Positions 32,514 through 63,717 of a stretch of 64,000 nt of DNA are shown here, piece after piece. The stretch is from NCBI RefSeq assembly GCF_964213995.1, contig NC_135830.1:17112001-17176000 (forward strand), written 5' to 3'. The DNA comes from Mustelus asterias. Taxonomy: Eukaryota. How positions within the stretch are numbered: position 1 is the stretch's first letter; each line of letters starts with the position of its first letter. The notes under the pieces are model-generated. The model did no database searches, was not told where the DNA came from, and worked only from the letters and a program-made list of their open reading frames with translations. The position numbers and the translations under genes were made by a program.

Positions 32514-33774
32514 GAGAAGGGATTCACTGGTTTATTCACCCTGCAGAGTCACCAGCGAGTCCACACTGGGGAGAGGCCGTTCACCTGCTCTGTGTGGGAA
32601 GGGATTCAGAGTTTCATCCCAGCTGCTGAGACACCAACAAGTTCACAAGTGATTCCAGGGGTTGGATTCTGCTGTTATTGTTTCTGCTCTCAATTACATC
32701 CAGGACTGCATTTTGTTCATTCTCACAGTTGGTCAATGGGGAGGGTCGGAGGGTTTCTTTCTGCTGGACTGGCCGGTCTCATGACTTTGCCTCCAGTGGG
32801 CTGATGCTCTTTGAGTCTTGTTGCAAATACCTGGTTTCAGATTTCACAAGGATCACAGAGTGACAGGGGGTTAGGAAGTTCAGAGATATTTCGTCAGCAT
32901 TTCTGTTTGAAACCTTCCAATGCCCATCCAATTTCCTTTGTAATTGTTTATTGTCTCCACTTCCTCCACCCTCGTAGGCAGCGAGTACCAGGTCATTACC
33001 ATTCGCTGCATCAAAATATTCTTCCTCACATCCCCCCTTCCTCCCTGACCCAAAACCATAAATCTGTGACCCCCTCATCCTTGTCCTGTCAGCTAATGGG
33101 AACAGCTTTTCTTTGTCCACCTTATCTAAACCTGTCAGAATCTTGTCCACCTCTATCAAATCTCCCCTCAACCTCCTTTGCTCCAAGGGGAAGAGCCCCA
33201 GCCTGACATTGACAATAAAGAACAAACTCACAGAATATGTTAATACCTGAAATCAAATGGGAATGTTGAATTTCTGTTTTAAAGAAATCATGAATATATT
33301 GTCCTGTACAATAAAGGGATTTGAATAACTCAGCTTGGGTGCAGTTAATGAGACATGGTCCAAAATGTATGCCAGAGTTATCTTCTGAGCTAAATGATCT
33401 TCAATAAGAGTGCTTTTACAAATGGAAGTAAAGTTGTTAGTGTGTAAGTAGCATGTTTCATAGGACAATTCCATTTCTAGTTTTGTTTGTACATGGGGTG
33501 ATTGGGACCAAAATGATTAATTGTTTATCTTTTCACCCACATATTGGTAATAAACGACCTTTTTTAATGCACAAAAAAAAAATGAAATGTATCAATCTGG
33601 TATCCACCCACAGTCCCGAGGAAGTCTGGAATGTGTAGCTGGAAATCCCTCCCTAACAGCACTGTGGGTGTACCTACACCTCAGGCATGATAGCAGTTCA
33701 GGAAGGCAGTGTTGGTGCTGATCGTGGGCGAGGCAGCTACAAACAGCCACATGTCCTGTTATAATTGTAAGTTT

Positions 33775-34130
33775 CAATCTGAAGCTCATTGGACAACTTC
33801 CGCATTGAGCAGGGGGAGCCCCGCCCCACCCTTTGTTCCCCATCCCCCTGCACCTCTTCCAGCCACGGTTTCCAGGCAACCAGCTGGCGGTTCCGGCCAG
33901 AGCCAGGAGCCGCGCGGTGACTGCGCATGTCCAAGGGAGAGGGGAAGATGCGCGTGTTCGGGGGAACCAACCTTTTGACCTGCAGGCTGAGGTGTTGGCC
34001 AATGGAAAGTTGGAGGACCGGAAGTTCACTGGTCCTCCAGTCAATCAGAGCGCCCCCATTGTCTGAATGCGGAAGTGGACAATGAGCTTGTTCAGCTGCT
34101 CATTCCTGCCCAGCAAAGTTGCTGCTGCTG
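33775..34130. promoter_or_regulatory. CpG-rich promoter cassette 4 with mirrored end motifs
   Basis: GC box (~33820), TGCGCATG (~33922), CCAAT (~33999), ETS-like CGGAAGT (34019, 34070). Inverted pair at 33782-33806 and 34066-34089. Confidence 0.65.
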
Positions 34131-34436
34131 CTTCTCTCTCAATGAGAATTGAGCTTCAGACGGCCTGAAACGTGCCTCCTCTGGGGCAGCGCCTGCACTT
34201 TGTTTCGGGGGTGGGGTGAGTTCACGTTCGCCCGAGTAGCGGGGGGCCCCGGGTCGGAGCCGGGCGGAAACTGTGGGTTTGTTTTCTTTTCTTTTTTTGT
34301 GAGTACCTTTATTTTTTTTTTCTCTCGTTTTTGCTCACGGAGACGCCCGGTTTTTGTTTTTGTTTTGTTGGGTTTGTTTGTTTTTCGCTCCCTGCGGGGA
34401 GGAAGGAGGGAGGTGAGCTGCTGCCTGCCTTGCCCG

Positions 34437-34908
34437 GCCTGCCTGCCGTCTGGCCTGCTTACCTGCCTGCCTGCCGTCTGGCCTGCTTACCTGCCTGCCT
34501 GCCGTCTGGCCTGCTTACCTGCCTGCCTGCCGTCTGGCCTGCTTACCTGCCTGCCTGCCGTCTGGCCTGCTTACCTGCCTGCCTGCCGTCTGGCCTGCTT
34601 ACCTGCCTGCCTGCCGTCTGGCCTGCTTACCTGCCTGCCTGCCGTCTGGCCTGCTTACCTGCCTGCCTGCCGTCTGGCCTGCTTACCTGCCTGCCTGCCG
34701 TCTGGCCTGCTTACCTGCCTGCCTGCCGTCTGGCCTGCTTACCTGCCTGCCTGCCGTCTGGCCTGCTTACCTGCCTGCCTGCCGTCTGGCCTGCTTACCT
34801 GCCTGCCTGCCGTCTGGCCTGCTTACCTACCTGCCTGCCTGCCGTCTGGACTGCCTGCCTGCCTGCCGTCTGGGCTGCCTGCCGTCTGGACTGCCTGCTT
34901 GCCTGCCA
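34437..34908 (+). repeat. 28-bp minisatellite in the Tx1 5'UTR
   Basis: About 14 identical units of GCCTGCCTGCCGTCTGGCCTGCTTACCT to ~34828, then degenerate units. Confidence 0.92.
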
Positions 34909-35303
34909 TCCGGCCTCTGGAGGGTGTGCTCTCCCCGGGGGGAGGGAGGAAGAGAGGACAGAGCGTAACTGGAGGAGAAGGGGGGGGGGGTGCGAAGGCG
35001 TTTGGACTGTCTCTTCTCCATCTGCAGTGGGGGGGGTGAAGACCTTTTTTCCTAATTCCCCTACCCACTGCTGCTGTCCCCAAGATTGGTGCACCCTCCC
35101 CTTTTTCCCTCCTGACTGGGGCACCGGCCTTGTGCCTTGTCTCCCTCCCACTGCTCCGACCTCCTCTCTCCCTCTCTCGCTCCGGGGAGAGAGCACCTAC
35201 ACCCCTACCCACCTACCCCACCCTCCCTTATTTTTCCCTCCACATATACGCCCTGCCGTACATCTAGGCAGTCTCGGGGTGGGTGTAGCACTCCCTTGAT
35301 ACC

Positions 35304-37406
35304 ATGGCGACATCACCAGCGTCGCCGGTGGCAGGGCCTTCTCGGCCCACCTATGCGGGCGTGGCGGCTGCCAGAGCCCCCGCCGCTCCCAAGGCCCTGC
35401 CGCCATTCTCCCTAATCACGCGGCAGCTCGGGGTGAAGTGCTACGCCCACCCCGACATGTCTATCGAGGCCTGCGTTAAGGCAATGGCTGGGGTTGTCGG
35501 CCCCTCAGCCATTGTCGCGGCCTCTAAGATGTACGGCCGGGCCGTATTCTTCCTGAAGGCCGAGCGGGCGGTTCGCCTCGCCCTGGAAAAGGGGCTCACG
35601 GTGGGCGGGACGTTCCTGGCGGTGGACCCATTGGAGGCCACCGCCCACAAGATAGTAATATCGAACGTCCCGCCCTTCCTACCAAGTGAGCTCCTCCTCC
35701 CCCACCTCCATCTACTGGGGGAGGTCAGGTCCGGGGTGCAGCCGATCCCGCTCGGCCTTCGGGACCCCTCCCTCCGCCATATTTACTCCTTCCGGCGCCA
35801 GGTTTTTGTCCGCCTGGCCCGGGAGGAGGAACTGGAGGGAGGTTTCAATGTCCCCCACGAGGGGACCACGTACCGGGTCTTTTGGTCCGCGGACGGTGTG
35901 CGGTGCCATGCCTGTAAGGAGGCGGGGCACGTGCGGAAAAACTGCCCCGTCTCCAAGGCCGCCGACCACCAACCCAAGGCGGCCGCAGCTGGCACCGCAG
36001 CCCCCTCTCCCCCCAAGCGAGTACCATCTGCCCCCCCGCGAGGGGAGGCCACGCCGGCAGCAGCTGCCACCTCAGCTGCCGGCGGGGGGGGAGCGGAGCC
36101 CCCGCGCGGCCAAAAGGCCCAGAAGGGACCTACAAAAAAGAAGGGGGGTACCGGAACCCCGGCCCCCAGGGAAAACACCCCAACCACCCCGGCAGCCGGC
36201 TCGGGGACCGCCTCAGTCTCCACCTGCGCCCCCCCCCCACCACCACCACCACCACCATCTGCCGGGCCCGTGGGCTCTCCGGGGCCTAGTGCTGGGTCCG
36301 GCGCCCGGGATCATGGGCCCGAGCATGGGGGGGTAAGCGACCCCGAGCCGGCAAAACTGGCGACGCCGCCACCTCGGGGGGAAGTGACGGGAGAGCAGGG
36401 GGGGCGCGGCAAGGCGAAGAGGGGCGGAGGGCGAGGGGCCTCGCCTGCCCGAGGGCAGGTTAACAAAAAGAGGCGGGGCCCCTCGGGCACCGTAGAGTTC
36501 GAGGTCTGCGTGCCCCTCCCCCCTTGTGAGTCATCTCCTGCCGTGCCCCCACCTGTCTTTGTGCCTTGTCCCCAGAAAAAAGGGGGCAAGGCACCCTGTA
36601 AATCCAAGCATGTGTTGCCTCAGTCCCCCGGCGAGGAGTCTCCGGGGCCGGGTGGCAGCGGGGCCCCCGTGGCTCCGTTCCACCCGGCCGGTTACAACCC
36701 GGAGTTCTTCTTCAGTCTGTCGGGGGACTGGGGCGACACTCCAATGTTCATGTCCTCGTGCGGCGGCGGCGAAGAGACGATCCACTCGTCCTCTCCGTCC
36801 CGACCTTGGACGCTGGACATCCCCAACCTCAGTCCGAAGGATACACCGGACCTGGGGGGTGTCCAAGCGTCTGGGGCGGGGGGGGCGGCTGGGCCGCCGT
36901 CGCACGGGGGCCCGCAATCCGGGAAAGGTGAGCCCGGGGGGAACCCCTCCTCCACCGATCCTGGGGGTGGGATCGGGGAGGGGCTAGGGCTAGTTGGTGG
37001 CTCCGTGCCGCCCGCCGTACGTCCTGCGGCGGGGGACTCGGAGTCGAGGGGCGACCGCCCTGAGGAGGTCAGCGGCTCGGTGGAGGGCACGGGGACACTT
37101 TCAGAGTCTGCCCAGAGCGAGGCGGGGGACTCCCTCGTGCCCCCCACCGAGTCGTCCCTCATCCCCTCCAAGGACCTCAGGGTCTTTATCCGTAGCCATT
37201 CCGGTCGCTCCGACATAATCCGGCTAGCCCTCGGCCACTGGCCGGACCTGGCGCAGCTCGTCCGGTCCGTGAAGGCATGCTCGCATGCCTCCGCGGGCCT
37301 GGAGAAAATAGAGCGGCGCTGGGTACTGCGGTTCCTCCACAGGCTCGAAAAGGTGGGAGGTGGACTGGTGAGAATTGCGCCAGCGCCCCCCCACACACCT
37401 AGTTAA
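35304..37406 (+). CDS. Tx1 ORF1 (gag-like nucleic-acid-binding protein), 700 aa
   Basis: Tx1-type N-terminus (IVAASKMYGRAVFFLK, KIVISNVPPFL, SFRRQVFV), zinc knuckle CHACKEAGHVRKNC, long Pro/Gly/Ala-rich tail. Confidence 0.9.
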   Translation: MATSPASPVAGPSRPTYAGVAAARAPAAPKALPPFSLITRQLGVKCYAHPDMSIEACVKAMAGVVGPSAIVAASKMYGRAVFFLKAERAVRLALEKGLTVGGTFLAVDPLEATAHKIVISNVPPFLPSELLLPHLHLLGEVRSGVQPIPLGLRDPSLRHIYSFRRQVFVRLAREEELEGGFNVPHEGTTYRVFWSADGVRCHACKEAGHVRKNCPVSKAADHQPKAAAAGTAAPSPPKRVPSAPPRGEATPAAAATSAAGGGGAEPPRGQKAQKGPTKKKGGTGTPAPRENTPTTPAAGSGTASVSTCAPPPPPPPPPSAGPVGSPGPSAGSGARDHGPEHGGVSDPEPAKLATPPPRGEVTGEQGGRGKAKRGGGRGASPARGQVNKKRRGPSGTVEFEVCVPLPPCESSPAVPPPVFVPCPQKKGGKAPCKSKHVLPQSPGEESPGPGGSGAPVAPFHPAGYNPEFFFSLSGDWGDTPMFMSSCGGGEETIHSSSPSRPWTLDIPNLSPKDTPDLGGVQASGAGGAAGPPSHGGPQSGKGEPGGNPSSTDPGGGIGEGLGLVGGSVPPAVRPAAGDSESRGDRPEEVSGSVEGTGTLSESAQSEAGDSLVPPTESSLIPSKDLRVFIRSHSGRSDIIRLALGHWPDLAQLVRSVKACSHASAGLEKIERRWVLRFLHRLEKVGGGLVRIAPAPPHTPS

Positions 37407-37434
37407 GTGGTGACGGTGGCACAAAGCTGCTGAC

Positions 37435-40400
37435 ATGAAGGTGACCATAGCCAGCCTCAACATCAACGGCAGCAGTGGGCCACACCGCAGGTTCCAGAAC
37501 TTCTCGGTCCTCCGTGACGGGAAGTATGCGGTGTGTTTCCTGCAGGAAACCCACACCGTTCCGGGAGACGAAGCCCAATGGCTCCTGGAGTGGCGAGGGG
37601 GGGTCTACATGAGCCACCTCACGCTCGCTTCTTGCGGGGTGGCTATCTTGTTGGCCCCGCGTTATAAGCCGGAGATCTTGGGGGTCAAGGAGCCGGTGCC
37701 AGGCCGGTTGCTGCACTTGACGGTCCGTGAGGGGGGCGTGGTCATTCACTTGCTGAATGTCTACGCCCCGACCGCTGGACCGCAGCAAACGACTTTCTAC
37801 AAGAAAGTGTCCGCTCACATCGACACCATCGCGGGGGGCGAATGCATTATCCTCGGGGGAGATTTCAACTGCATCCTCGAGGCACGGGACCGCACCGGCC
37901 CCTGGCTGCGCACTCCGGCGGTGGTGAAGTTGCGGGACCTGATCGGGTCCCACGACTTGGTGGACGTCTGGAGACATCTCCATCCTGGCTCCAGCGCCTT
38001 CACTTTCGTGAGGCCTGGAGTCGGAGCGTCCAGGCTCGACCGCCTTTACATTTCGAAGGCGCACGTGTCCGGCGTGTCCTCGGTCTCCATGCGGCCGGTG
38101 TCGAGCACGGACCACAGCCTGGTGAGGGCGGACTTTGCGCCGTCTCGCATCCGGCGGGGGTCCGCGTACTGGCACTTTAACAACACGCTGCTGGAGGACG
38201 AGCGCTTCCTGGACTCGTTCCGTCGATTCTGGGCCGGCTGGAGAAGGAAGCGGGGAGGCTTCCCCTCCTTGAGGCTCTGGTGGGATGTGGGCAAGACTCA
38301 CGTCCGTACCTTCTGTCAGGGGTACGCGAGGGGGTCGACAAAGAGGCGGAAATCCAGGCTCGAGGAGTTGGAGAAGGAGGTGCTCGACCTGGAGGCACGT
38401 CTCAGTCGGCCTGACGCGGACCCGGCCCTGCGTTCGGAGTACAGGGAAAAGAAGGACGCGCTGCGAGACCTGCAGCTTGCCAGGTCTCGCGGCGCGTACG
38501 TGAGGTCGCGGCTCCAGTTCCAGGTGGACCTGGACCGCGGCTCCCCCTTCTTCTACTCGCTGGAAAGAGGGCGGGCTAACCGTCAGCAGCTCCTTACGCT
38601 GCTGGCCGACGACGGTTCCCCCGTCTCGGATCCGGAGGGCATCCGGGCCATTGCCCGGGAGTATTACACCTCGCTCTTCTCTCCGGATCCGTCCAGCGAG
38701 GATGCCCGCAGACTTCTGTGGGAGGACCTGCCACAGGTCGGCCCGGAGGGCGTCGGCAGGCTCGAGGCCCCTACCACCATGGCCGAGCTGACCGGCGCCC
38801 TAAATGGCCTCAGCCGGGGCAAGGCCCCTGGGCTGGACGGGCTGACAGTAGAGTTCTTCAGGGCGTTCTGGGACGTCCTGGGGAGCGACTACGCGGGGGT
38901 CCTGGGGGAGAGCGTCGCTACCGGGGAGATGCCCCTTTCGTGGCGCAGGGCCGTCATTGCCCTGCTGCCCAAGAAGGGGGATCTCCACCTGCTCAAGAAC
39001 TGGCGCCCGGTCTCCCTCCTCAGCACGGATTATAAAATCTTTGCCAGGGCTATGGCTTCACGCCTTGGATCCGTGCTGGACCACTTGATCCACCCTGACC
39101 AGTCCTACACGGTCCCGGGCCGTTGCATACATGACAATCTCCACCTGGTCCGGGACCTAATCCATCACACCCAGAGGGCTGGTCTGTCGGGCGCCTTCTT
39201 GTCATTAGATCAGGAGAAGGCGTTCGACAGGGTGGAGCACGAGTATTTACTCGGGACTCTGCGGGCATTCGGGTTCGGGACGCATTTTGTCGCCCGGATC
39301 CGATTACTGTACTCTGCCGCAGAGTGTCTGATTAAGGTTAACGGGTCCCTGACGGCGCCCCTTCGCTTCGGGAGAGGAGTACGGCAGGGCTGCCCCTTGT
39401 CCGGCCAACTGTATTCCGTATGCGTGGAGCCATTCCTGCGCCTCTTGCGGAGGAGGTTGTCAGGTTTGGTCCTGCGCGGACCGGACGTAGGGGTGGTCCT
39501 GTCAGCTTACGCCGACGACGTGCTCCTCATGTTCACGGACCCGGCTGACCTGCGGAGGATGCGAGAATGCCAGGCGGTGTACTCCGCCGCGTCCTCCGCC
39601 AGGATCAACTGGGCCAAGTGCTCCGGACTCCTTGTCGGTCCTTGGGAGACGGACCCCCTTCCGGAGGAGCTCAGGCCTTTCACCTGGAGCAGGACCAACC
39701 TCCTCTACTTGGGGGCCCATCTCTGCCCAGCCGAGGAATCCTGGCCGGCGAACTGGCGGGAGCTGGAGGCCAAAGTCTCCGCCCGCCTGGGTCGCTGGAC
39801 AGGACTGCTCCGAGTGCTGTCCTACGGGGCGCGAGCTCGCGTCATAAACCAGCTGGTCGCCTCCATGCTGTGGTACCGGCTGGTCCCTTTGACCCCTCCC
39901 CCTGGCTTTGTCACCGATATCCAGAGAACCCTCGTGCGGTTCTTCTGGGGCAATCGACTGCACTGGGTCCCTGCTGCGGTCCTGTATCTCCCGCTTGAGG
40001 AGGGCGGACAAGGTCTGGTGTGCCTCCGCACTCAGATAGCGACCTTCCGCCTCCAGGCCCTGCAGAGGTACCTTTACGTTGAGCCCCCTCCACAGTGGTG
40101 TGCCATGGCGACGTATTTCTTCCGCCAGTGGCACGGCCTCAATTATGACGTGCAGCTCCTGCATATCGAACTGGGGCGTGCTTCGACCGCCCTGCAGGAG
40201 TTGCCCGTCTTTTACCAGGACCTCCTCACTGTCTGGAACAAGGTCGCCTCGCGACGCAGCTCTCCCCCGTCAGGAGTAGCGGCTCTCGTGCGAGAGCCGC
40301 TGCTCAGGAATCCGCTCCTCCAGCCGTATAACTTCAGGTGGCTGGCGGAGAGGGGGGCTGTGGACGCCGGGGTGACCAGAATCGGGGACGTGCTCGATGG

Positions 40401-41328
40401 CGGAGGAGCGGGCTGGATGAGTCCCCGCGTGCTGGCTGAGCGCGCGGGGACGTCCGTCCGGCGCGCGGCCAAAGCCATCCTAGACCTTAGGACGGTCGTG
40501 CTCGGCCCCGAAACTGCACGCAAACTTGAGACGGCACAGGCGTGCGGTGGGATCCCGCCCGAGCGTTCCCCTGTTCGGGCGGAATTCCACATTGGCCCAA
40601 AGCCTCAGCCCCCTCCCCTGGGTGAGGTGCCCCACAGCCTGAGCCGCCTCGCGGAAATGCCCTCCGTGCCTTTTTCTACCGCGCGGAGGCGTTTCCTGTG
40701 CGGGCTGCTGCTGCACACCTTCCACTACCGCCTCCTCGCCTGTCGCCCGGATACACCTTGGCGGGCCTTGTTGCCGCCGGGCGGCGGAGGTCCCCGCTGG
40801 AGGTCCCTCTACGGAGGGATCTCCCCCAATTACGTCGGGGACCTGGGGTGGAGGGTGATGCATGCAGCAGTTCCGCACAACCGTAGGATTCACTGGTTCA
40901 CGGGCTCCGAAGACTGCCCTTTCTGTGGCCTTGTGGAGTCCGTGGACCATGTCTATGTTGAGTGTCTTAGGCTGCACTCCCTTTATGTTTTCCTGAAGAA
41001 TCTTTTATTGATGTTTTGTTTGCACTTCAGTCCCACGCTCCTGATCTACGGACACCCGGTGCGGAGAGGGGAGGGTCGGGATGGCGACCTCCTCGTGAAC
41101 CTGCTCCTGGGCCTGGCGAAACGCGCCATTTACCGGTCCAGGCAGCGGGCGATCGAGGGGGCCGTCCATCCTGACTGTCTTCCCCTCTACCGCGGCTACG
41201 TTCGCGGCCAGGTGTCCCTGGAGAGGGAGCATGCGGTGTCCACGGACGAGGTTGACGCTTTCCGCGCCCGCTGGGCACCGCAGGGGTTGGGGTGCATTAT
41301 TGACCCTAATAACCACATTTTAATTTGA
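37435..41328 (+). CDS. Tx1 ORF2: APE endonuclease, reverse transcriptase and C-terminal zinc finger, 1297 aa
   Basis: SLNING, LQETH, GGDFN, RLDR, TDH (APE); NWRPVSLL, LDQEKAFDRV, GVRQGCPLS, YADD (RT); CPFC..ESVDHVYVEC. No stops. Confidence 0.95.
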   Translation: MKVTIASLNINGSSGPHRRFQNFSVLRDGKYAVCFLQETHTVPGDEAQWLLEWRGGVYMSHLTLASCGVAILLAPRYKPEILGVKEPVPGRLLHLTVREGGVVIHLLNVYAPTAGPQQTTFYKKVSAHIDTIAGGECIILGGDFNCILEARDRTGPWLRTPAVVKLRDLIGSHDLVDVWRHLHPGSSAFTFVRPGVGASRLDRLYISKAHVSGVSSVSMRPVSSTDHSLVRADFAPSRIRRGSAYWHFNNTLLEDERFLDSFRRFWAGWRRKRGGFPSLRLWWDVGKTHVRTFCQGYARGSTKRRKSRLEELEKEVLDLEARLSRPDADPALRSEYREKKDALRDLQLARSRGAYVRSRLQFQVDLDRGSPFFYSLERGRANRQQLLTLLADDGSPVSDPEGIRAIAREYYTSLFSPDPSSEDARRLLWEDLPQVGPEGVGRLEAPTTMAELTGALNGLSRGKAPGLDGLTVEFFRAFWDVLGSDYAGVLGESVATGEMPLSWRRAVIALLPKKGDLHLLKNWRPVSLLSTDYKIFARAMASRLGSVLDHLIHPDQSYTVPGRCIHDNLHLVRDLIHHTQRAGLSGAFLSLDQEKAFDRVEHEYLLGTLRAFGFGTHFVARIRLLYSAAECLIKVNGSLTAPLRFGRGVRQGCPLSGQLYSVCVEPFLRLLRRRLSGLVLRGPDVGVVLSAYADDVLLMFTDPADLRRMRECQAVYSAASSARINWAKCSGLLVGPWETDPLPEELRPFTWSRTNLLYLGAHLCPAEESWPANWRELEAKVSARLGRWTGLLRVLSYGARARVINQLVASMLWYRLVPLTPPPGFVTDIQRTLVRFFWGNRLHWVPAAVLYLPLEEGGQGLVCLRTQIATFRLQALQRYLYVEPPPQWCAMATYFFRQWHGLNYDVQLLHIELGRASTALQELPVFYQDLLTVWNKVASRRSSPPSGVAALVREPLLRNPLLQPYNFRWLAERGAVDAGVTRIGDVLDGGGAGWMSPRVLAERAGTSVRRAAKAILDLRTVVLGPETARKLETAQACGGIPPERSPVRAEFHIGPKPQPPPLGEVPHSLSRLAEMPSVPFSTARRRFLCGLLLHTFHYRLLACRPDTPWRALLPPGGGGPRWRSLYGGISPNYVGDLGWRVMHAAVPHNRRIHWFTGSEDCPFCGLVESVDHVYVECLRLHSLYVFLKNLLLMFCLHFSPTLLIYGHPVRRGEGRDGDLLVNLLLGLAKRAIYRSRQRAIEGAVHPDCLPLYRGYVRGQVSLEREHAVSTDEVDAFRARWAPQGLGCIIDPNNHILI

Positions 41329-41455
41329 TGTTTTTAAGTTTCCTTTGCATTTTGATTTCTGTTCGGGCTGTTCCCCCTCCTTTTTGGGGAGCTGCCCCTT
41401 TTACTTTGTCCTGATTTAATTTGAGTTTGTTTACTTGGTTTGACCTAAAAAGAGG

Positions 41456-41519
41456 TCTCTGAATGAAGATTGAGCTTCAGACAGACTCAAACTTCCTCCC
41501 GTCTTCAACATCAGTGAGT
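41456..41519 (+). other. Remainder of a putative non-coding first exon with a splice donor
   Basis: TCTCTGAATGAAGATTGAGCTTCAGAC...CATCA|GTGAGT (donor 41514-41519); continues the promoter at 33775-34130 once Tx1 is removed. Confidence 0.55.
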
Positions 41520-51300: not shown

Positions 51301-51347
51301 GTACAATTTAGCATGGCCAATCCACCTGACCAGCACATTCCCAAGCT

Positions 51348-51887
51348 TGCCCCTTCTGTGGCCTTGTGGAGTCCGTGGACCATGTCTATGTTGTGTGTCT
51401 TAGGCTGCACTCCCTTTATGTTTTCCTAAAGAACCTTTTAATGATGTTTTGTTTGCACTTCAGTCCCACGCTCCTGATCTACGGACACCCGGTGCGGAGA
51501 GGGGAGGGTCGGGATGGCGACCTCCTCGTGAACCTGCTCCTGGGCCTGGTGAAACGCGCCATTTACCGGTCCAGGCAGCGGGCGATCGAGGGGGCCGTCC
51601 ATCCTGACTGTCTTCCCCTCTACCGCGGCTACGTTCGCGGCCAGGTGTCCCTGGAGAGAGGGAGCATGCGGTGTCCACGGGCACGGTTGACGCCTTCCGC
51701 GCCCGCTGGGCACCGCAGGGGTTGGGATGCGTTATCGACCCTGATAATCACATTTTAATTTGATGTTTTAAGTTTCCTTTGTGCTTCTGTTCTGTTTGGG
51801 CTGTTCCCCCTCCTTTTGGGGAGCTGCCCCTTTTACTTTATCCTTGAGTTAATTTAAGTTGGTTTATTTGGTTTGCCCTAAAAGAGG
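51348..51887 (+). mobile_element. 5'-truncated copy of the same Tx1 family
   Basis: Nearly identical to ~40915-41455 and ends CTAAAAGAGG. Flanked by CCTGACCAGCACAT (51325-51338) and CCTAACCAGCACAT (51888-51901) inside a SINE. Confidence 0.92.
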
Positions 51888-53135: not shown

Positions 53136-53435
53136 TTCGAATTGTGAGAGGGGGAATAATGGACAATACCATATTGGCCAGGGAGCCGGGGGAGATGGGA
53201 TGTGGTGGAATTGATGGGCTGGTCAAAATGTGAGGTGAGGTGGGAGGGAATGCTGGACCGTGCCAAACCAGTGGGGGAGGGGGGAATGTTGATCTGTCCC
53301 CAACTGGTCAAAGTGTGGCCTGAGGGTTCTTGATGGTTTACACTCTGGGGGGGGACATTAATGAGCTGTGAGTCAACCGCTGAGTGAGGATCTGGTTCTA
53401 ACCCCCGCACCCCTTCCTCCTCCTCCAGCAGGAAG

Positions 53436-53585
53436 ATGGCCGGGGCGCTGCTGGGCCGCGTGTGCATTGTGACTGGAGCTTCCCGGGGCATCGGGAAAGG
53501 CATCGCCCTGCAGCTGGGAGAGGCCGGGGCCACCGTCTACATCACCGGCCGCAACATGGACACGCTGCAGACGGCGGCCAAGGAG
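53436..53585 (+). CDS. DHRS1: DHRS1 first coding exon
   Basis: MAGALLGRVCIVTGASRGIGKGIALQLGEAGATVYITGRNMDTLQTAAKE (SDR TGxxxGxG motif); upstream polypyrimidine/AG acceptor and GTGAG donor. Confidence 0.92.
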
Positions 53586-53989
53586 GTGAGGCCGGGGGGG
53601 GGAGGGGAGAGGGGGTGGTGGGTCGGGGGGGGGGGGGGGGGGGGCACCAGGGGACAGATGCGGGACTGGAGCGGCAGCTGGAGAGGAACAATTTTTTAAA
53701 AACACGTGCCTTCCCGACCTCAAAGCTTTCGGTGGCCAGCGGGACGCAGTCTGGGACAGCCGGCGCCCATTTTGTGCACGGCAGGATTCCACGAGGAGCG
53801 GGACCGCCGCCGCAGGACAGTGATGGTGTGGGAGGAAGCCACCCGGCCCATCGTGTTCCACGCCGGTTCTGCGAAGGCGCAATTTAGCACGTCCAATCCC
53901 CCTAACCTGCACATCTTTGGACACTAAGGGGCAATGTAGCATGGCCAATCCACCCTAACCTACACATCTTTTGGACTGTGGGAGTTAAG

Positions 53990-54322
53990 CGGGTTAGCAG
54001 TGGTTAGCACTGCTGCTTCACAGCTCCAGGGTCCTGGGTTCGATTCCCGGCTCGGGTCACTGTCTGTGTGGAGTTTGCACATTCTCCTCATGTCTGCGTG
54101 GGTTTCCTCCGGGTGCTCTGGTTTCCTCCCACACTCCAAAGATGTGTGGGTTAGGTCGATTGGCCATGCTAAAATTGCCCCTTAGTGTCCTGAGATGTGT
54201 AGGTTAGAGGGATTAGTGGGTAAAATATGTAGGGATATGGGGGTAGGGCCTGGGTGGGATTGTGGTTGGTGCAGACTCGATGGGCCAAATGGCCTCTTTC
54301 TGCACTGTAGGCTTTCTATGAT
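53990..54322 (+). mobile_element. HE1-like SINE
   Basis: Consensus match. Confidence 0.82.
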
Positions 54323-54719
54323 CTGTGACACCCAGAGGAAACCCATGCAGACACTAGGAGAACGTGCAGACTCTGCACAGACTGACCCGAATGTAGGCCA
54401 AGTCCTCATAGGACCATCACCTGCATCCCAGGAAGCAGTCCAGTGAACCTCAGTTGCACTCCTATGTCCTTCCTCTGGTAAGGAGAGCGAGACTGTGCAC
54501 TCTGCTCCAGATGTGGCCACGGCAGTGTCCTGTTTAATCGGAAGGTGTTTGACTCTGAGGGCAGCAGCTTACATTCCCTCGCCGATGGGTCTGTGGCCGT
54601 AAACCTTTTGGACAACCTACCCACCGAGTACTCACCCTGAGTGCAATTTTATACTGTCGTCAAATGCAGTGGCCATTTTGTAGAGCGGGAAATGTCACGG
54701 TGTCAAATGCGACAGCCGT

Positions 54720-55483
54720 TGGTGCGGCAACAATAATCTCTCCCTCAATGTCAACAAAACGAAGGCGATTGTCATCAACCTCAGGAAGCGTACAGGAGAA
54801 CATGTCCCTGTCTACATCAACGGGGATGAAGTAGAAAGGGTCGAGACCTTCAAGATTTTGGGGGTCCAGATCACAAACTACTTGTCCTGGTCCCCCCCAT
54901 GCCAACACTATAGTTAAGAAAGCTCACCAACGCCTCTACTTTCTCAGAAGACTCAGGAAATTTGGCATGTCAGCTATGACTAGCCCCAACTATTTTACAG
55001 ATGCACCATAGGAAGCATTCTTTCTGGTTGTATCACAGCTTGGTATGGGTTCCTGCTCTGCCCAAGACCGCAAGGAACTACAAAAGGTTGTGAATGTAGC
55101 CCAATCCATCACGCAAACCAGCCTTCCATCCATTCACTCTGTCTACACTTCCAGCTGCCTCGGCAAAGCAGCCGGCATAATTAAGGACCCCACGCACCCC
55201 GGACATTCTCTCTTCCACCTTCTTCCGTCGGGAAAAGAATAAAAAGTCTGAGGTCACGTACCAACCGACTCAAGAACAGCTTCTTCCCTGCTGCTGTCAG
55301 ACTTTTGAATGGTCTTGCCTCACATTAAGTTGATCTTTCTCTACACCCTAGCTATGATTGTAACACGATATTCTGCACTCCCTCATTTCCTTCTCTATGA
55401 ATGGTATGCTTTGTCTGTATAGCGCGCAAGAAACAATACTTTTCACTCTATACTAATACACGTGACAAAGAATAAATCAAATC
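54720..55483 (+). mobile_element. Rex1/Babar-like LINE 3' fragment
   Basis: NNLSLNVNKTKAIVINLRK...VKKAHQRLYFLRRLRKFGMS, and an AATAAATCAAATCA tail. The same tail occurs at ~12230, 17360, 26330, 28852, 46368 and 57404. Confidence 0.8.
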
Positions 55484-55870
55484 ATTTTGTAGAGCAGGAA
55501 ATGTCCTATCAAATGCGGTGGCCATTTTGTAAATTCCATGGCGACGAAGTGCATCGTGGGATTTTTGCAGTGCGGTCCCCGTCACTTTGCAGAGAAAAAA
55601 AGAGAAGCCGGGTGAAAAGGCCATGACTGCCGCTGGCGGGGAACCTCGGCGGCCATTTTATGCCCCTCAAGATTCTGCGAAGAAAAACAGTTTTACGCTG
55701 CTGTCAGTAGTGGGGGGGGCGGGGGTGGGGGGAGATAGATGTCTCGGGAACGTCACCGTAAGGTCAGTAGGTGGGGGTTAGTGTGTGACCGGGCTGCTGA
55801 GATGCTCCCCCCCCCCCCCCCCCCCCCCCATCGCAGAGTCCCTCACTCTCTTCGTCCTTTCCCCCGGCAG

Positions 55871-56014
55871 GTGGAGGCGCAGGGAGGCCGCTGCGTGCCG
55901 GTGGTGTGCGACTCCACCAGCGAGGAGCAGATCCGCTCGCTCTTTGGCCGGGTCGAGCAGGAACAGGGAGGCCGGCTGGACGTTCTGGTCAACAACGCCT
56001 ACGCGGCGGTGGAG
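55871..56014 (+). CDS. DHRS1: DHRS1 coding exon 2
   Basis: AG|VEAQGGRCVPVVCDSTSEEQIRSLFGRVEQEQGGRLDVLVNNAYAAVE|GT, 144 nt. Confidence 0.92.
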
Positions 56015-56231
56015 GTAGGGCTGAAATTCCGGGCCGGGGACCCGCATGGTGCTGGCGACTCAACGATTCGATTGACCCGGGTGCTAAGTATATATACTCG
56101 AGGGAATCGAGGGGTGAGCTAACCGAGGGGGAAGGGAAGCGGGGGGACTTAAAGATTTCACTGGGGTCGACAGGGAGGGGGAGAGAGAAAGAGGAACTTT
56201 TTCTTCTGGCTGGAGTTTGGGGGGCTGTCGG

Positions 56232-56539
56232 ATAGAATCCCTACAAAGCCGAAGGAGACCATTCGACCCATTTAAAGCTGCACTGACCACAGTCCCACCC
56301 AGGCCCTATCCCCGTAACCCAACATATTTACCCTGCTAATCCCCCTGATAGTAAGGGGCAATCTAGCATGGCCAATCCATCTAACCTGCACATCTTTGGA
56401 GTGTGGGAGGAAACCGGAGCACCCGGAGGAAACCCACGCAGACACGAGGAGAATGTGCAAACTCCACACAGACCGTGACCCGAGCCGGGAATAAAAGTTG
56501 GGTCCCTAGAGCTGTGAGGTAGCAGTGCTAACCACTGTG
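56232..56539 (-). mobile_element. HE1-like SINE
   Basis: Consensus match. Confidence 0.8.
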
Positions 56540-56668
56540 TCGATAGGATCCGGAACAAGCCAGGACAGGACGTGGCGAATGAAGCCTAGCCCATTGCAGA
56601 AGGGGTTAAATGGGATGCCTGTCTGCGCCCTCGTTTGAGGGGTTTTAATCTTCACTTTTCCTCCCTAG

Positions 56669-56748
56669 TCAATTATTTCTGACCATGAGAAGAAATTCTG
56701 GGAGATGCCACCTTCGTTCTGGGATGTGGTCAATGATGTGGGTCTGCG
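56669..56748 (+). CDS. DHRS1: DHRS1 coding exon 3
   Basis: AG|SIISDHEKKFWEMPPSFWDVVNDVGL(R)|GTGAGT, 80 nt; phase fits the next exon. Confidence 0.88.
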
Positions 56749-57879
56749 GTGAGTACTGCAGCGGAGGTGCAGCTGTCTCTCGCTCTCGCTGTCTCTCTCT
56801 CGCTCTTCCCCCCCACTCTGCCCCCCCCTCCCCCCCATCTACATGAAGAACATCTGCTGTCTTACCCCTGCCCTCCCACCAACCTGAGCTTCCCAGATCC
56901 GATTAGGGAACTTCAGACCAGAAGATACTGGAGCAGAATTAGGCCTCTTGGCCCATTGAGTTTGCTCTGCTATTCGATCGTGGCTGATAAGTTTCTCTAC
57001 ACCCATTCTCCCGCCTATTCCCCTGTAACCTTTGACCCCCCTCCACTCCTTACCACCCTCTCTGTACACCTCCCGCTGCCTCGGCAAAGCAGCCGGCATA
57101 ACCAAGGGCCCCACGCACCCCAGACATTCTCTCTTCCACCTTCTTCCGTCAGGAAAAAGATACAAAAGTCTGAGGTCACGTACCAACCGACTCGAGAACA
57201 GCTTCTTCCCTGCTGCTGTCAGACTTTGAATGGACATACCTTGCATTAAGTTGATCTTTGTCTACACCCTAGCTGTGACTGTAACACTACATTCTGCACT
57301 CTCTTGTTTCCTTCTCTATGAACGGTATGCTTTGCCTATATACCGTGCAAGAAACAATACTTTTCACTGTATGTTAATACATGTGACAATAATAAATCAA
57401 ATCAAAAACCGATCAAGAACCTATCTATCTCTGTCTTAAATACACTCAGCGACCTGGCCTCCTCTGTGGCAATGAATTCCACAGGTTCACCAATCTCTCC
57501 AGCTGAAGAAATCTGTGTTCCAAAGGGTTGTCCCTTTCGTCTGAGGATGTTCCCTCTGAACTGAATCTCTCCGACCAATGGGAACATCTTCCCCACGTCC
57601 GCTTTAACCAGGTCTTTCAGTATTCTGTAAGTTTCAATGAGATCCCTCCGTGCCCTCCCCATCCTTCTAAATTCCATCGAGTACAGACCCAGAGTCCTTG
57701 AATGCTCCTTGTACGATAATCCTTCCACTCCCAGGATCGTTCGCGTGAAGCTCCACTTGGTGAGGGGGCCACTTTGACACCCATTCACTCCCCCTCCCCT
57801 GACCTTGTCCACCCCTCCCCCTCCCCCGCTCGTTGACGTACATAGAGTCATCGCGTTTCATCTGCACAGAAAGGCCTAT

Positions 57880-58206
57880 GGTGCAGAAGGAGGCCATTCG
57901 GCCCATCGAGTCTACACCGACCACAATCCCACCCAGGCCCTATCCCCATAACTCCACATACTTACCCAGCTAACCCATCTAACCTACACGTCTTTGGACA
58001 CTAAGAGATAATTTAGCATGGCCAATCCACCTAACCCGCACATCTTTCGGACTGTGGGAGGAAACTGGAGCACCCAGAGAAAACCCATGCAGACACCGGC
58101 TGAGAATGTGTAAACTCCGCACAGACAGTGACCCGAGCTGCGAATTGAACCCAGGTCCCTGGAGCTGTGAGGCAGCAGTGCTAACCACTGTGCCACCATG
58201 CCGCCC
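57880..58206 (-). mobile_element. HE1-like SINE
   Basis: Consensus match. Confidence 0.8.
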
Positions 58207-58243
58207 AGGGAAGCGTAGAACAAGAGTAAAAGATAGTATTAGA

Positions 58244-60481
58244 GGTGAATGGTAGGACCTTAGGGAGTATCGTGGAACACAGGGACCTTGGAGTTCAGGT
58301 GCATGGTTCTCTAAAGGTGGAGTTAGAACCATAGAAAATTACAGCTCAGAAACAGGCCTTTTGGCCCTTCTTGTCTGTGCCGAACCATTTTTTGCCTATT
58401 CCCACTGACCTGCACTTGGACCATATCCCTCCACACCCCTCTCATCCATGAACCCGTCCAAGTTTTTCTTAAATGTTAACCACTTTATCCGGCAGCTCAT
58501 TCCACACTCCCACCACTCTCTGCGTGAAGAAGCCCCCCCTAATATTCCCTTTAAACTTTTCTCCTTTCACCCTTAACCCATGCCCTCTGGTTTTTTTCTC
58601 CCCTAGCCTCAGCGGAAAAAGCCTGCTTGCATTCACTCTATCTATACCCATCAAAATCTTATACACCTCTATCAAATCTCCCCTCAATCTTCTACGCTCC
58701 AGGGAATAAAGTCCCAACCTATTCAATCTCTCTCTGTAACTCAGCTTCTCAAGTCCCGGCAACATCCTTGTGAACCTTCTCTGCACTCTTTCAACCTTAT
58801 TTACATCCTTCCTGTAACTAGGTGACCAAAACTGTACACAATACTCCAAATTCGGCCTCACCAATGCCTTATAACCTTACCATAACACTCCAACTTTTAT
58901 ATTCGATACTCCGATTTATAAAGGCCAATGTACCAAAGGCACTCTTTACGACCCTATCCACCTGTGACGTCACTTTTAGGGAATTCTGTACCTGTATTCC
59001 CAGATCCCTCTGTTCAACTGCACTCTTCAGAGTCCTACCATTTACCCTGTACGTTCTTCTTTGGTTTGTCCTTCCAAAGTGCAATATCTCACACTTGTCT
59101 GCGTTAAATTCCATTTGCCATTTTTCAGCCCATTTTTCTAGTTGGTCCAAATCCCTCTGCAAGCTTTGAAAACCTTCCTCACTGTCCACTACACCTCCAA
59201 TCTTTGTATCATCAGCAAACTTGCTGATCCAATTTACCACATTATCATCCAGATCATTGATATAGATGACAAACAACAATGGACCCAACACCGATCCCTG
59301 CGGCACACCACTAGTCACAGGCCTCCACTCAGAGAAGCAATCCTCCACAACCACTCTCTGGCTTCTTCCATTGAGCCAGTGTCTAATCCAATTTACTACC
59401 TCCCCATGTATACCTAGCGACTGAACCTTCCTAACTAACCTCCCATGAGGGACCTTGTCAAAGGCCTTGCTGAAATCCAGGTAGACAACATCCACCGCCT
59501 TCCCTTCATCCACTTTCCTGGTAACCTCCTCGAAAAACTCTAATAGATTGGTCAAACATGACCTACCACGCACAAAGCCATGTTGACTCTCCCTAATAAG
59601 TCCCTGTCTATCCAAATATTTGTAGATCCTATCCCTTATCACACCTTCCAAAACTTGCCCACCACCGACGTCAAACTTACTGGCCTATAATTTCCCAGAT
59701 TTCTTTGGAACCTTTTTTAAACAACGGAACAACATGAGGCACCCTCCAATCATCCGGCACCTCCCCCGTGAATACTGACATTTTAAATATGTCTGCCAGG
59801 GCCCCTGCAAGTTCAACACTTGTTACAGATAGATAGGGCAATGAAGAAGACCTTTGGCATGCTGGCCTTCATCAGTCAGGGCATTGAGTGTAGAAGTTGG
59901 GAAGTTGTGTTGCAATTGTACAGGACGTTGGTGAGGCCGCACCTGGAGTATTGTGTTCAGTTTTGGTCACTTTGCTATAGAAAAGATGTTATTAAACTGG
60001 AGAGAGTGCAGAAGAAGTTTATAAGGATGTTGCCAGGACTCGAGGGACTGAGTTATAGACAGAGATTGGACAGGCCTGGACTTTTTTTCTTTGGAACATA
60101 GCAGACTGAGGGATGATTTTATAGAGGTGCAGAGGATCATGAGGGGCATGGATAGGGTGAACGCACTCAGTCCTTTTCCCAGAGTTGGGGAATTGAGAAC
60201 TAGAGAGTTTAAGTTAAGAGGAGAAAGAATTAATGGGAACCTGAGGAGCAGCTTTTTTACACAGAGGGTGGTACGTATGTGGAATGAGCTGCTGGAGGGA
60301 GTGGTTGAGGCAGGGACATTGTCAACATTTAAAAGGTATTTGGACAGATATATGGATAGGAAAGGTTGAGAGGGATATGGGCCAAATGCAGGCAAATGGG
60401 GTTCGCTTACATGGGCTTTTTGGTCAGCACGGACCAGTTTGGGCCGAAGGGCCTGGCTCCGTGCTGTAGATTCTATGACTG
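58244..60481 (+). mobile_element. CR1 3' fragment (+), split by a younger CR1 (-)
   Basis: 58244-58324 joins 59822-60481 at ..AAGGTGGAGTT|ACAGATAGATAGGG. Confidence 0.8.
58325..59821 (-). mobile_element. CR1 LINE 3' fragment
   Basis: ORFs 58869-59651 (QHGFVRGRSCLTNL, FSKAFDKVPH, FADDTK) and 58469-58864. Confidence 0.9.
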
Positions 60482-60845
60482 TAGAGGGCATGCTGGGTAC
60501 AGCTCACAAGAAGTTGCCATCTTGGATCGGGTCTGCCGTGTCTTCGTACCCACTCCATGGATTTCCTTTTCCATGGGTAAGAAACTGCAGTGACATCCTC
60601 CCCTCCCAGTGGTGGCGCTGTGGAGTACTGGACCCAGGGCTCCGAGTGGGAGCGAAGGCAGTCACTGACCTTTCTCACCCTCTGGATTCCAGGGGTGAGA
60701 TCCTGGTCCCACGTGCGGAGATGGGGGGGGGGGGGGGGGGGAGATTGGGATGCGATGAGGGGAGTGCGGTAGTGGAAGAGGCCTCGCTGCCGTAGTGTGT
60801 CCCAACACCTCCCCCCTCCCCAACCACACTTGCTTTGTTGTGCAG

Positions 60846-60978
60846 GGGCCACTATATCTGCTCGGTGTACGCAGCCCGGATGATGGTGGAGGCGAAGCAG
60901 GGCCTGATTGTCATTGTGTCGTCCATGGGCGGCCTGCGCTACACCTTCAACGTGGCTTATGGAGTCGGCAAGGCAGCG
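60846..60978 (+). CDS. DHRS1: DHRS1 coding exon 4
   Basis: AG|GHYICSVYAARMMVEAKQGLIVIVSSMGGLRYTFNVAYGVGKAA|GTGAGT; contains the catalytic YxxxK (YGVGK); 133 nt. Confidence 0.92.
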
Positions 60979-61041
60979 GTGAGTGGCAGGGCAGTGCGGG
61001 TACACAGGCCGAAGGGCAAAGGTCACTCATTCACTTTGAGT

Positions 61042-61585
61042 NNNNNNNNNNNNNNNNNNNNNNNNNNNNNNNNNNNNNNNNNNNNNNNNNNNNNNNNNNN
61101 NNNNNNNNNNNNNNNNNNNNNNNNNNNNNNNNNNNNNNNNNNNNNNNNNNNNNNNNNNNNNNNNNNNNNNNNNNNNNNNNNNNNNNNNNNNNNNNNNNNN
61201 NNNNNNNNNNNNNNNNNNNNNNNNNNNNNNNNNNNNNNNNNNNNNNNNNNNNNNNNNNNNNNNNNNNNNNNNNNNNNNNNNNNNNNNNNNNNNNNNNNNN
61301 NNNNNNNNNNNNNNNNNNNNNNNNNNNNNNNNNNNNNNNNNNNNNNNNNNNNNNNNNNNNNNNNNNNNNNNNNNNNNNNNNNNNNNNNNNNNNNNNNNNN
61401 NNNNNNNNNNNNNNNNNNNNNNNNNNNNNNNNNNNNNNNNNNNNNNNNNNNNNNNNNNNNNNNNNNNNNNNNNNNNNNNNNNNNNNNNNNNNNNNNNNNN
61501 NNNNNNNNNNNNNNNNNNNNNNNNNNNNNNNNNNNNNNNNNNNNNNNNNNNNNNNNNNNNNNNNNNNNNNNNNNNNNNNNNNNNN
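61042..61585. other. Assembly gap (544 N)
   Basis: Run of N inside a DHRS1 intron. Confidence 0.99.
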
Positions 61586-61759
61586 CTCTGGCCTCTCTGG
61601 CTCGCTCTGGGGCTCTCGGGCTCGCTCTCGCTCTGGTTGGCTCTGTCTGCCTGCCCCCCCCCCCCACCCTGCCCCTAGCCCCTCCTCCTCTGCCCCTCCG
61701 CCCCCCCCCCCCCCCCCTCTCTCTCTCACAGTTCTCTCTCTCTCTCTCTCTCTCTGCAG

Positions 61760-61903
61760 TGTGATCGAATGGCAGCAGACTGTGCGTTGGAGTTGCGGAA
61801 ACTCGGAGTATCATACGTGTCCCTCTGGCCGGGAGCCGTGCGCACCGAGACCGTGACTGACTTGGTTATTAACACGGAGGACAAATCCAAAGGACAGCAA
61901 CGG
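61760..61903 (+). CDS. DHRS1: DHRS1 coding exon 5
   Basis: AG|CDRMAADCALELRKLGVSYVSLWPGAVRTETVTDLVINTEDKSKGQQR|GTGAGT, 144 nt. Confidence 0.9.
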
Positions 61904-61917
61904 GTGAGTGAGACAGC

Positions 61918-62148
61918 GAGGAGGCGGCCATTCAGCCCCTTCTCCAGCCTGTTACACAGGGAACAGGAGGAGGCCCCATTCAGCCCCTTCTCCAGCCTGT
62001 TACACAGGAACAGGAGGAGGCCATTCAGCCCCTTCTCCAGCCTGTTACACAGGGAACAGGAGGAGGCCATTCAGCCCCTTCTCCAGCCTGTTACACAGGA
62101 ACAGGAGGAGGCCATTCAGCCCCTTCTCCAGCCTGTGACACAGGAACA
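61918..62148 (+). repeat. ~44-bp tandem repeat, 5 copies
   Basis: Units of GGAGGAGGCCATTCAGCCCCTTCTCCAGCCTGTTACACAGG(G)AACA. Confidence 0.88.
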
Positions 62149-62289
62149 CAGAACGGGAAGAAGGAAATTGAGGGAAAGGACATTGGGAGAGTGTAACCTG
62201 AAGAGGGAATGGAGGGAGAGAGAGTGGGATGGGAAGGAGGGAGCCAGTGGGTGAGGGAGAGCGAGAGGGTGAACAGGTGGATGAGGGAG

Positions 62290-63717
62290 AGGGAGGTTCA
62301 AGTCCATAGCTTCCTGAAAGCGGCCACACCAGTCAATAGGGGGTAAAGAAGGCGTACGGCATGCTTGCCTTTATAGGTCGGGGCATTGAATACAAGAGTC
62401 AGGATGTCATGTTGCAGCTTTAAAAAACTTTGGTTCGGAACCACTTATAGGATATTGCGTTCAATTCTGGTCGCCACCTTACAGGAAGGATGCAGAGGAT
62501 TTGGAGAGGGTGCAGAAGAGGTTTAACATGACGCTGCCTGGATTAGAGGGTACGAGATATAAGGAGCGGCTGGACAAACTAAGAACTAATGTTTATTTAT
62601 TAGTGTCACAAGTAAGGCTTACATTAACAGCGCAATGAAGTTACTGTGAAAATCCCCCAGTCGCCACACTCCAGCGTCTGTTCGGGAACACTGAGGGAGA
62701 ATTTAGCACGGCCAATGCACCCTAACCAGCACATCTTTCAGACTGTGGGAGGAAACCGGAGCACCCGGAGGAAACACACGCAGACATGGGGAGGTGGGGG
62801 CGGCGAGAATGTGTAGGCTCCACACAGACAGTGACCCAAACCTGGGTCCCTGGCGCTGTGAGGCAGCAGTGTGAACCACTGTGCCCTCCCTAGGGTTGTG
62901 TGGGATTCTAGGGCTGGGTGGGATTGCTGTTGGTACAGCCTCGATGGGCTGAATGGCCTCCTTCTGTACTGTAGGGATTCTATGTTCATAAGAACTAGGA
63001 GCAGGAGTAGACCATCTGGCCCCTCGAGCCTGCTCCGCCATTCAATAAGATCAGGCTGATCTCTTCATGGACTCAGCTCCACTTATCCGCCTGCTCACCA
63101 TAACCCTTAATTCCTTTACTGTTCAAAGATTTATCTATCCTTGCCTTAAAAACATTCAATGAGGCCCCAACTGCTTCACTGGGCAGGGAATTCCACAGAT
63201 TCACAACCCTTTGTGTGAAGAAGTTCCTCCCCAACTCAGTCCCAAATCTGCTTCCCCTTATTTTGAGGCTGTGTCTCCTAGTTCTAGTTTCACCCACCAG
63301 TGGAAACAACTCGGATTGTTTTCTCTGGAGCGGCGGAAGCTGAGGGGAGACCTGATGGAAGTCTATAAAATAATGAGAGACATCGATAGGGTTGACAGTC
63401 AGAATGTTTTTCCCAGAGTTGAAATGTGTAATACTCGGGGACATGCACTTCAGGAGAGAGGGGGAAAGTTCAAAGGGGATGTGAGGGGCAAATATTTTTA
63501 AACAGAGAGTGGTCGGTGTCTGGAACGCGCTGCCAGGGATGGTGGTGGAGGCAGATACGATAGGGGCGTTTAAGGGGCTTTTAGATAAGCTCATGGATAT
63601 GTGAGGAATAGAGGGATATGGACCAAGGGCAGGCAGAAAGGAATAGTTTAATTTGGCATCATGTTCGACACAACATGGTGGGCTGAAGGGTCTGTTCCTG
63701 TGCTGCACTGTTCTATG
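62290..63717. mobile_element. Cluster of CR1 fragments and a Rex1-tailed SINE (62591-62884, -)
   Basis: CR1 C-terminal motifs on + (62290-62580, 63312-63717) and - (62990-63310). Confidence 0.72.

Follow-up and report, generated by a model that had tools for sequence, protein, structure and literature searches.

Structure of the Inserted Element

The stretch of DNA analyzed here, referred to as the window, comprises 64,000 nucleotides of the Mustelus asterias genome (RefSeq assembly GCF_964213995.1, contig NC_135830.1, positions 17,112,001 to 17,176,000 of the forward strand). It contains a long interspersed element (LINE) of the Tx1 type that splits a leader exon of the kind found in zinc-finger (ZNF) genes. 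The element occupies positions 34135–41455 of the window and, like the host features around it, lies on the plus strand. Members of its family insert at a target site in ZNF leader exons, as established by genome-wide searches over the 3.68-Gb assembly, in which contigs are labelled C1 and so forth and loci L001 and so forth; the window is on C71.

Upstream of the insertion, a ZNF-type promoter and the 5′ part of the leader exon (33850–34134) belong to the paralogue type of L257, an uninterrupted (empty) site, whereas the right flank is of another type. The element begins with a head (34135–34205) that reproduces, in degenerate form, the rest of the leader exon and the first bases of the intron but lacks the splice donor. 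The head is followed by a 5′ untranslated region (UTR; 34206–35303) that includes a 28-bp tandem repeat at about 34406–34850 and two GTGAGT motifs. Open reading frame (ORF) 1 (35304–37406) encodes 700 amino acids with a CCHC knuckle (CHACKEAGHVRKNC) seen in the translation; a Pfam search with ORF1 returned no match. ORF2 (37435–41328; 1297 amino acids) encodes an APE-type endonuclease and a reverse transcriptase, matched in Pfam by PF03372 and PF00078. The 3′ UTR (41329–41455) runs to a fixed 3′ end without a poly(A) tail. Beyond it lie the remainder of the host leader exon (41456–41513), which is both the target and a reusable target site and is of the paralogue type of the empty site L212, and the host splice donor GTGAGT, read in the sequence at 41514–41519. 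A roughly 230-bp A-tailed insertion at 33352–33580, upstream of the promoter, is absent from four paralogous segments.

Both ORFs are intact, and the CpG observed/expected ratio is 0.75–0.84 within them compared to 0.37 in the flanks, which agrees with the initial annotation of an open, CpG-rich Tx1 insertion. The best named full-length match of ORF2 is Xenopus Tx1L ORF2 (49% identity over 1299 columns); identity is 50% to turtle proteins, 70% to a stingray fragment over one third of the query, in keeping with a cartilaginous-fish host, and 31–37% to fish pol-like proteins, in whose entries family names are absent. A separate ORF1 with a CCHC knuckle is a feature of the Tx1 clade and is present here. 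The element is a young, intact LINE, assigned to the Tx1 clade by its best protein match. Its family bears the marks of target-primed reverse transcription, namely the fixed 3′ end, 5′ truncation of all 40 sampled off-target copies, and target-site duplications (TSDs) at 23 of these 40. In one turtle gene model (P0019), one of several reverse transcriptase fusions listed, a related reverse transcriptase is fused with KRAB and C2H2 domains; this predicted fusion is a lead for turtles and has no value as evidence of targeting.

The Element Carries an Exon-Derived Head

The left junction (34135–34179) had been described as resembling the right flank (41456–41499) over about 45 bp. Both sequences are found at these places, with 37 of 45 columns identical in a global alignment, and the likeness itself stands, but not its length: it continues to the splice donor, which is itself missing, and for about 10 bp past it. 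A 20-mer core of the likeness occurs twice in the window, at the two junctions, where 0.02 occurrences would be expected by chance. The resemblance was considered as a true TSD and rejected, because TSDs of the family measure 13–15 bp and the head markers are absent from targets. Also rejected was an empty site that held two motif copies beforehand, which the initial annotation had named as a refuting outcome: paralogous empty sites hold a single motif copy each and not both 45-bp copies (305 raw matches including multiple counting, 88 of them on the reverse strand).

Rather, the head is an element-borne stretch of about 70 bp of host sequence without a donor. This conclusion follows from the least diverged head, in the flank of L161, whose alignment with the exon reaches exactly as far as the donor in 19 of 21 exons, and from the heads on C75, which correspond to exon end plus intron start minus nine donor bases when compared with L243 and L250. 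Alignment of full-length copies from across the genome, suggested at the outset, showed that they share the head and that their flanks are not random. The 30 best head loci are all preceded by a ZNF leader or by another copy, and each of 88 listed heads follows, in sense, a ZNF leader (31) or an element 3′ end (57); the search pattern samples about three quarters of heads, and contexts were counted by eye. The marker GAGAATT, positioned inside the TSD zone, falls in heads in 48 of 49 cases genome-wide and in 0 of 30 right flanks, and a second marker, TCGGTCTG, accompanies heads across differing promoters. The head is thus part of the element, and its sequence replaces that of the TSD zone. The window head contains an 8-codon upstream ORF at 34142; in many heads the host ATG is cut to an 8-codon ORF or altered to GTG, and in the commonest subfamily the head has drifted from the exon.

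A single empty leader, L285 (C87:2703180), carries head markers and could represent a donor paralogue, or else a site that the element has converted. An Rfam search of 33900–35320 gave no ribozyme match above chance, a search by which divergent ribozymes can be missed. L097 on C3 is a retrocopy with a poly(A) tail, bounded by a TSD of about 10 bp and composed of 200 bp of 3′ end and 180 bp of the next head. Since this retrocopy, likely moved by another LINE, spans a tandem junction, RNA must have run through an element 3′ end. Contigs from two other studies (runs X1–X5) contain related ends and heads, and none of the listed pieces spans the 3′ junction by 31 bases.

Insertions Recur at One Site in ZNF Leaders

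The exact 26-nt 3′ end of the element occurs 219 times genome-wide and is followed in 116 cases by the leader motif, either in a ZNF leader or in an element head (101 of 204 without one local tandem array on C89). A Tx1 family is regarded as target specific when one sequence type makes up more than 20% of its flanks (PMC4494074, Kojima), a proportion exceeded by these 116 of 219. At the 30 best 3′-end loci, the flank is a ZNF leader or head in 25 and other sequence in 5. Junctions join the target at TCTC or TCTG, 4–10 nt before a conserved ATG-containing core and always in gene sense; they are confined to a 6-nt window within which the cut shifts in 2-nt steps. Exact leader cores number at least 467 genome-wide compared to about 4.7 × 10^7 YTCTS sites, so that the excess of insertions at leaders amounts to several orders of magnitude.

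From 100 listed on-target ends, 80 were fetched (omitting the window, the C3 copy, 14 repeats of the C89 array, and 4 others), and 38 of these belong to full-length copies. With arrays linked, 40 distinct ZNF-side junctions sort into 32 downstream types when 97% identity is required and into 22 when 95% is, three of the links being false joins between identical duplicates. Rare exon variants beside the junction agree with the paralogue downstream, beginning with the first bases (L152 with L073 and L087; L143 with L257), and short copies at the target site are bounded by 14–15 bp TSDs (L136 and L171). The number of downstream types, the matching of variants, the 2-nt variation of the cut, and the TSDs of short copies together indicate many independent insertions at one place.

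The flanks differ from those of site-specific elements with other targets. Insertion into (TC)n or (TTC)n microsatellites of the Kibi/Koshi type is absent, the sites beginning with TC but consisting of runs of 2–5 units in an exon or of a lone TCTC or TCTG, and because the flanks are ZNF leaders, neither the U2 small nuclear RNA (snRNA) target of Keno and Utopia nor the 28S target of R2 applies. Head and right flank each rebuild the target site, and head-to-tail arrays are common. One array, L144 (C89:2431506-2433797), consists of about 20 units of 132 bp, each made of the last 105 bp of the element and 27 bp of target. A diverged subgroup, about 96.6% alike, has flanks that begin with ACA or GCA and not TC (L092, L095, L096, L100, L101, L107, L111, L121, L124, L126, and L127), and on C158 one 3′ end joins inside a head at a site of this ACA/GCA type.

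The Target Exon Is a Leader of ZNF Genes

Downstream of empty sites, a C2H2 array in sense orientation was present at a distance of 0.7–4.8 kb in 20 of 20 fetched cases, which together with the flank counts bears out the proposal that the family targets first exons of ZNF genes. The exon ATG opens only a short ORF that stops after 16–49 codons in all 17 testable genes (3 of 20 were untestable, and intermediate exons may have been missed), and on this basis the exon is a leader; the leader ATG as the ZNF start codon was rejected on the same count. The leader donor is likely used, because a contig of run X2, from another study with the molecule type unrecorded, connects the end of a paralogous exon with the sequence found after the acceptor of the L251 ZNF coding exon.

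Several observations concern the surroundings of these leaders. ZNF leaders often stand back to back, 450–650 bp apart (C71:18158312-18158992, C87:956543-957033, and C87:2776614-2777106), a spacing as from a two-way promoter. Leader exons in the right flanks of L134, L142, L157, L172, and L188 are split by sequence that we take to be 5S rRNA-like, and the right flank shared by L013 and L192 shows the donor followed by presumably tRNA-like sequence; further mobile elements may use ZNF leaders. In the window, a DHRS1-like gene (53400–63900, plus strand) marks the edge of the ZNF cluster; it starts 12 kb downstream of the orphan ZNF-type leader, which might serve as an alternative first exon of this gene.

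Mismatched Flanks and Mosaic Copies

The two sides of the window element stem from different paralogues. Its upstream side is 95–99% identical to empty L257 over 12 kb and to filled L188 and L169 over 22 kb, and its downstream side is 96–98% identical to empty L212 over 10 kb. The same pattern is seen elsewhere: L143 has a downstream side like that of L257 and a different promoter, and L138 is 100% identical to empty L084 over 17 kb upstream and differs downstream. The flanks of 6 of 15 promoter-to-exon insertions could be compared at 400 bp, and in every case they disagreed; long alignment added the window as a seventh discordant case. Flank concordance was therefore 0 of 7 filled sites compared to 52 of 71 testable empty sites (93 in all, 22 untestable; Fisher p = 2.5 × 10^−4, with paralogues not independent). 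Part of the mismatch between the left and right junctions is chimerism as well, because the C of the left TCTCTCAATG is an L257-type variant. One promoter type recurs with several downstream types, and a single 1.1-kb fragment junction is found at 19 loci inside a duplicated host segment of variable extent. At L176, the same rare variant stands on both sides.

The copies themselves are mosaic. The 39 full-length copies studied differ by 0.28–1.31% and in repeat length. Across 38 non-CpG informative sites in full-length copies, 74–88% of pairs fail the four-gamete test, and linkage falls with distance (rho −0.16; 0 of 500 permutations). A long 5′ transduction as the cause of the mismatched flanks was rejected, since upstream identity extends for 12–22 kb through introns and no distant TSD was found. 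Recombination between copies would be the simplest reading of mismatched flanks and mosaicism together, and because full-length flanks stem from different paralogues and copies are mosaic, the copies likely act as recombination hubs.

Off-Target Copies and a Sister Family

The off-target sample (n = 40) consists of 38 regions covering 40 matches on C1–C38 together with two known off-target loci. All 40 copies are truncated (median 292 bp, longest 3332 bp), and 39 lie at unrelated sites. In 20 of the 23 copies with TSDs the duplication measures 13–15 bp, and exact TSDs bound copies of up to 2.7 kb; flanks start with TC in 27 of 40.

A further truncated copy in the window (51339–51887, plus strand) had been taken for an off-target event within a short interspersed element (SINE). 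It is 93% identical to the element, has a different 3′ end and a 14-bp TSD-like repeat, and lies in a repeat that we assume to be a SINE. This 3′ end falls at one position of the SINE-like repeat in 33 of 49 listed cases, counted by eye, so that the copy represents a second target-specific family; true off-target copies of the window family are those sampled elsewhere (39 of 40 outside the target). A search with the shared 5′ UTR motif found no full-length sister-family heads, and no complete member of that family was observed.

A Model for Targeting, Expression, and Exchange

Taken together, the data probably describe a young Tx1 LINE that inserts at one TC-rich site of ZNF leaders, carries an exon head without a donor, is likely transcribed from host promoters, and likely swaps flanks between paralogues. 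In this model, an ancestor would have been located just inside the intron, about 70 bp downstream of the present position, where reading from the ZNF promoter would have captured the leader; capture of the head by splicing is a less likely alternative. The donor would then have been lost from the carried leader, which would keep the ORFs from being removed by splicing at that position. Borrowing of the host Pol II promoter is suggested indirectly by the sense position of heads behind leaders. During insertion, the leader cDNA would anneal to the target upstream of the nick and complete the 5′ junction, as described for R2. The cue that selects ZNF leaders is most likely a TC preference of the endonuclease combined with pairing of host-derived RNA ends with the target. 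Finally, recombination would take place between the 7-kb copies, which are nearly identical and occupy homologous positions in many paralogues, joining the promoter side of one gene to the downstream side of another.

It is important to note that several observations weigh against this model. About half of the 3′ ends are off target, so that specificity is partial, and segmental duplication inflates the counts, as the junction shared by 19 loci illustrates; the unrecombined parental form of that junction was searched for without a match. Off-target sites pair with read-through sequence at five or more bases in 7 of 22 cases, a weak excess over a background of 17%. The 1.1-kb GC-rich 5′ UTR could hold an internal promoter, and the splice-avoidance argument is weakened by other GTGAGT motifs 57–147 bp into 27 of 39 full-length heads. 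No C2H2 fingers were found downstream of the window exon, either in the window or in 10 kb of empty L212. The concordance test covers 7 of 15 insertions, with L167 borderline and the paralogues nonindependent. An inversion with an inverted copy, copy B, 54 kb away was rejected, as the predicted partner lacked the expected flanks.

Alternative explanations were considered for both the targeting and the mismatched flanks. A weak (TC)n preference like that of Kibi, with an excess at ZNF leaders produced by open promoter chromatin and by segmental duplication of a few insertions, would account for the TC at the start of so many outside flanks, for off-target sites that look CpG-rich and promoter-like (L015, L129, and L130), for the evident duplication, and for the sparing of leaders with TG in place of the TC run, which are never seen as target (0 of 30 right flanks). 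We nevertheless consider it very unlikely, given that at least 22–32 downstream paralogue types are joined within the 6-nt window, that no other promoter family recurs among the 39 off-target sites except for one duplicate pair, and that no listed head occurs anywhere but behind a ZNF leader or a copy. It is also unlikely that targeting is real while transcription starts at an internal promoter, with the head a functionless fossil of an old insertion site. The long GC-rich 5′ UTR, its other donor-like motifs, and the drift of the head in the commonest subfamily fit such a fossil, yet all 88 listed heads keep their sense position, the head markers overwrite the TSD zone, and a self-promoted element should leave full-length copies elsewhere, of which the off-target sample holds 0 of 40.

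The mismatched flanks could have been made at insertion, if reverse transcription begins at one paralogue and the resulting cDNA is joined to another paralogue, or to a pre-existing copy, so that the cluster is rearranged in one step. None of the seven tested full-length sites is concordant, several full-length copies share a near-identical 3′ part and have 5′ ends 1–2% apart, four copies behind the same promoter type carry different heads, and copy B combines a ZNF promoter on its 5′ side with an off-target 3′ flank and no TSD, all of which such a rearrangement would produce. The matching rare variant on both sides of L176, as an ordinary TSD would give, and the fine-scale mosaicism across the whole element, which points to repeated exchange after insertion, make this origin rather improbable. 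Assembly artefacts, that is, misjoining or mispolishing across near-identical 7-kb repeats, would be suspected from the many copies on small contigs, the complete upstream identity of L138 and L084, and identical 850-bp flanks on different contigs. All 39 full-length copies are distinct in sequence and repeat length, however, off-target copies as long as 2.7 kb retain exact TSDs, and simple swaps would not multiply the downstream types found with one promoter type, so that artefacts have only a slim chance of explaining the pattern. Recombination between copies at a preferred leader site remains the favored reading.

A broader proposal is put forward tentatively, at somewhat less than even probability. 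The LINE would be specialized on a ZNF family suspected of transposon silencing and expressed together with these genes, and its copies would be fixed crossover points that swap promoters and coding parts and seed duplication, with sister families having switched targets. Such switches would imply that target choice can be changed by few mutations or by host sequence at the RNA ends.

Significance and Comparison with Known Systems

The targets named for site-specific retrotransposons in the available portions of the literature are RNA genes, microsatellites, satellites, and other transposons; those of Tx1 elements comprise transposons, U2, U5, and 5S genes, satellites, and microsatellites (PMC4494074, PMC4640811). 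The leader exon of a protein-coding Pol II gene family adds a new class of target to those of this known kind of element. Literature searches turned up no Tx1 family directed at ZNF genes, within a scope that excluded Repbase, Dfam, most subscription journals, and the supplementary tables of PMC4494074. ZNFs have been linked to transposon repression in zebrafish, sharks being unmentioned in the available portion of that article (PMC10547256). PMC12575710 raises the question of whether chance or an active mechanism brings retroelements into ZNF clusters, and the present family, in which 14 of 39 full-length copies retain both ORFs, is a direct candidate for active targeting of ZNF genes. Exchange of flanks at an invariant position in the exon would also give ZNF clusters a concrete route for turnover. 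Whether target choice depends on the endonuclease or on the RNA ends can be tested on the sister families, which are 93–97% alike and use different sites.

Xenopus laevis Tx1L, the closest named ORF2, likewise has two ORFs, an APE endonuclease, and sequence-specific insertion. In contrast to Tx1L, which inserts into the Tx1D DNA transposon (PMC4494074), the window element enters protein-coding leader exons and carries a target-derived head. The teleost Tx1 families Kibi and Koshi share a target that begins with TC, and Kibi inserts into (TC)n (PMC4494074); their target is a microsatellite, whereas the present family uses a short TC run within a gene exon. Keno, Utopia, and Tx1-Mar resemble it in their site-specific multicopy targets and occasional tandem copies (PMC4494074, section 16; PMC4640811), although these targets are U2 genes or Mariner transposons. 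Some Tx1-Mar elements also have heads derived from host snRNA (PMC4494074, PMC4640811). As described there, these heads are unrelated to the elements' own target, whereas head and target of the window family represent the same exon.

More generally, mouse KRAB-ZNF clusters show enrichment of endogenous retroviruses and LINEs and chimeric copies at duplication borders, for which nonallelic homologous recombination has been proposed (PMC12575710, PMC13709654). These studies attribute the enrichment mainly to duplication and leave it open whether targeting is active, whereas the window family is defined by one gene site at nucleotide level. R2, which inserts into 28S ribosomal DNA, parallels the mode proposed here in that it is cotranscribed with its target gene and in that target sequence kept at the 5′ end of its RNA anneals and forms the 5′ junction (PMC6895275). 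R2 differs from the window element, which has an APE domain, in its RLE endonuclease, single ORF, and Pol I host unit. R2 also has an HDV-like ribozyme, for which the Rfam search of the window element gave no match above chance, and the fixed head of the window element, unlike R2, copies sequence that lies downstream of the nick.

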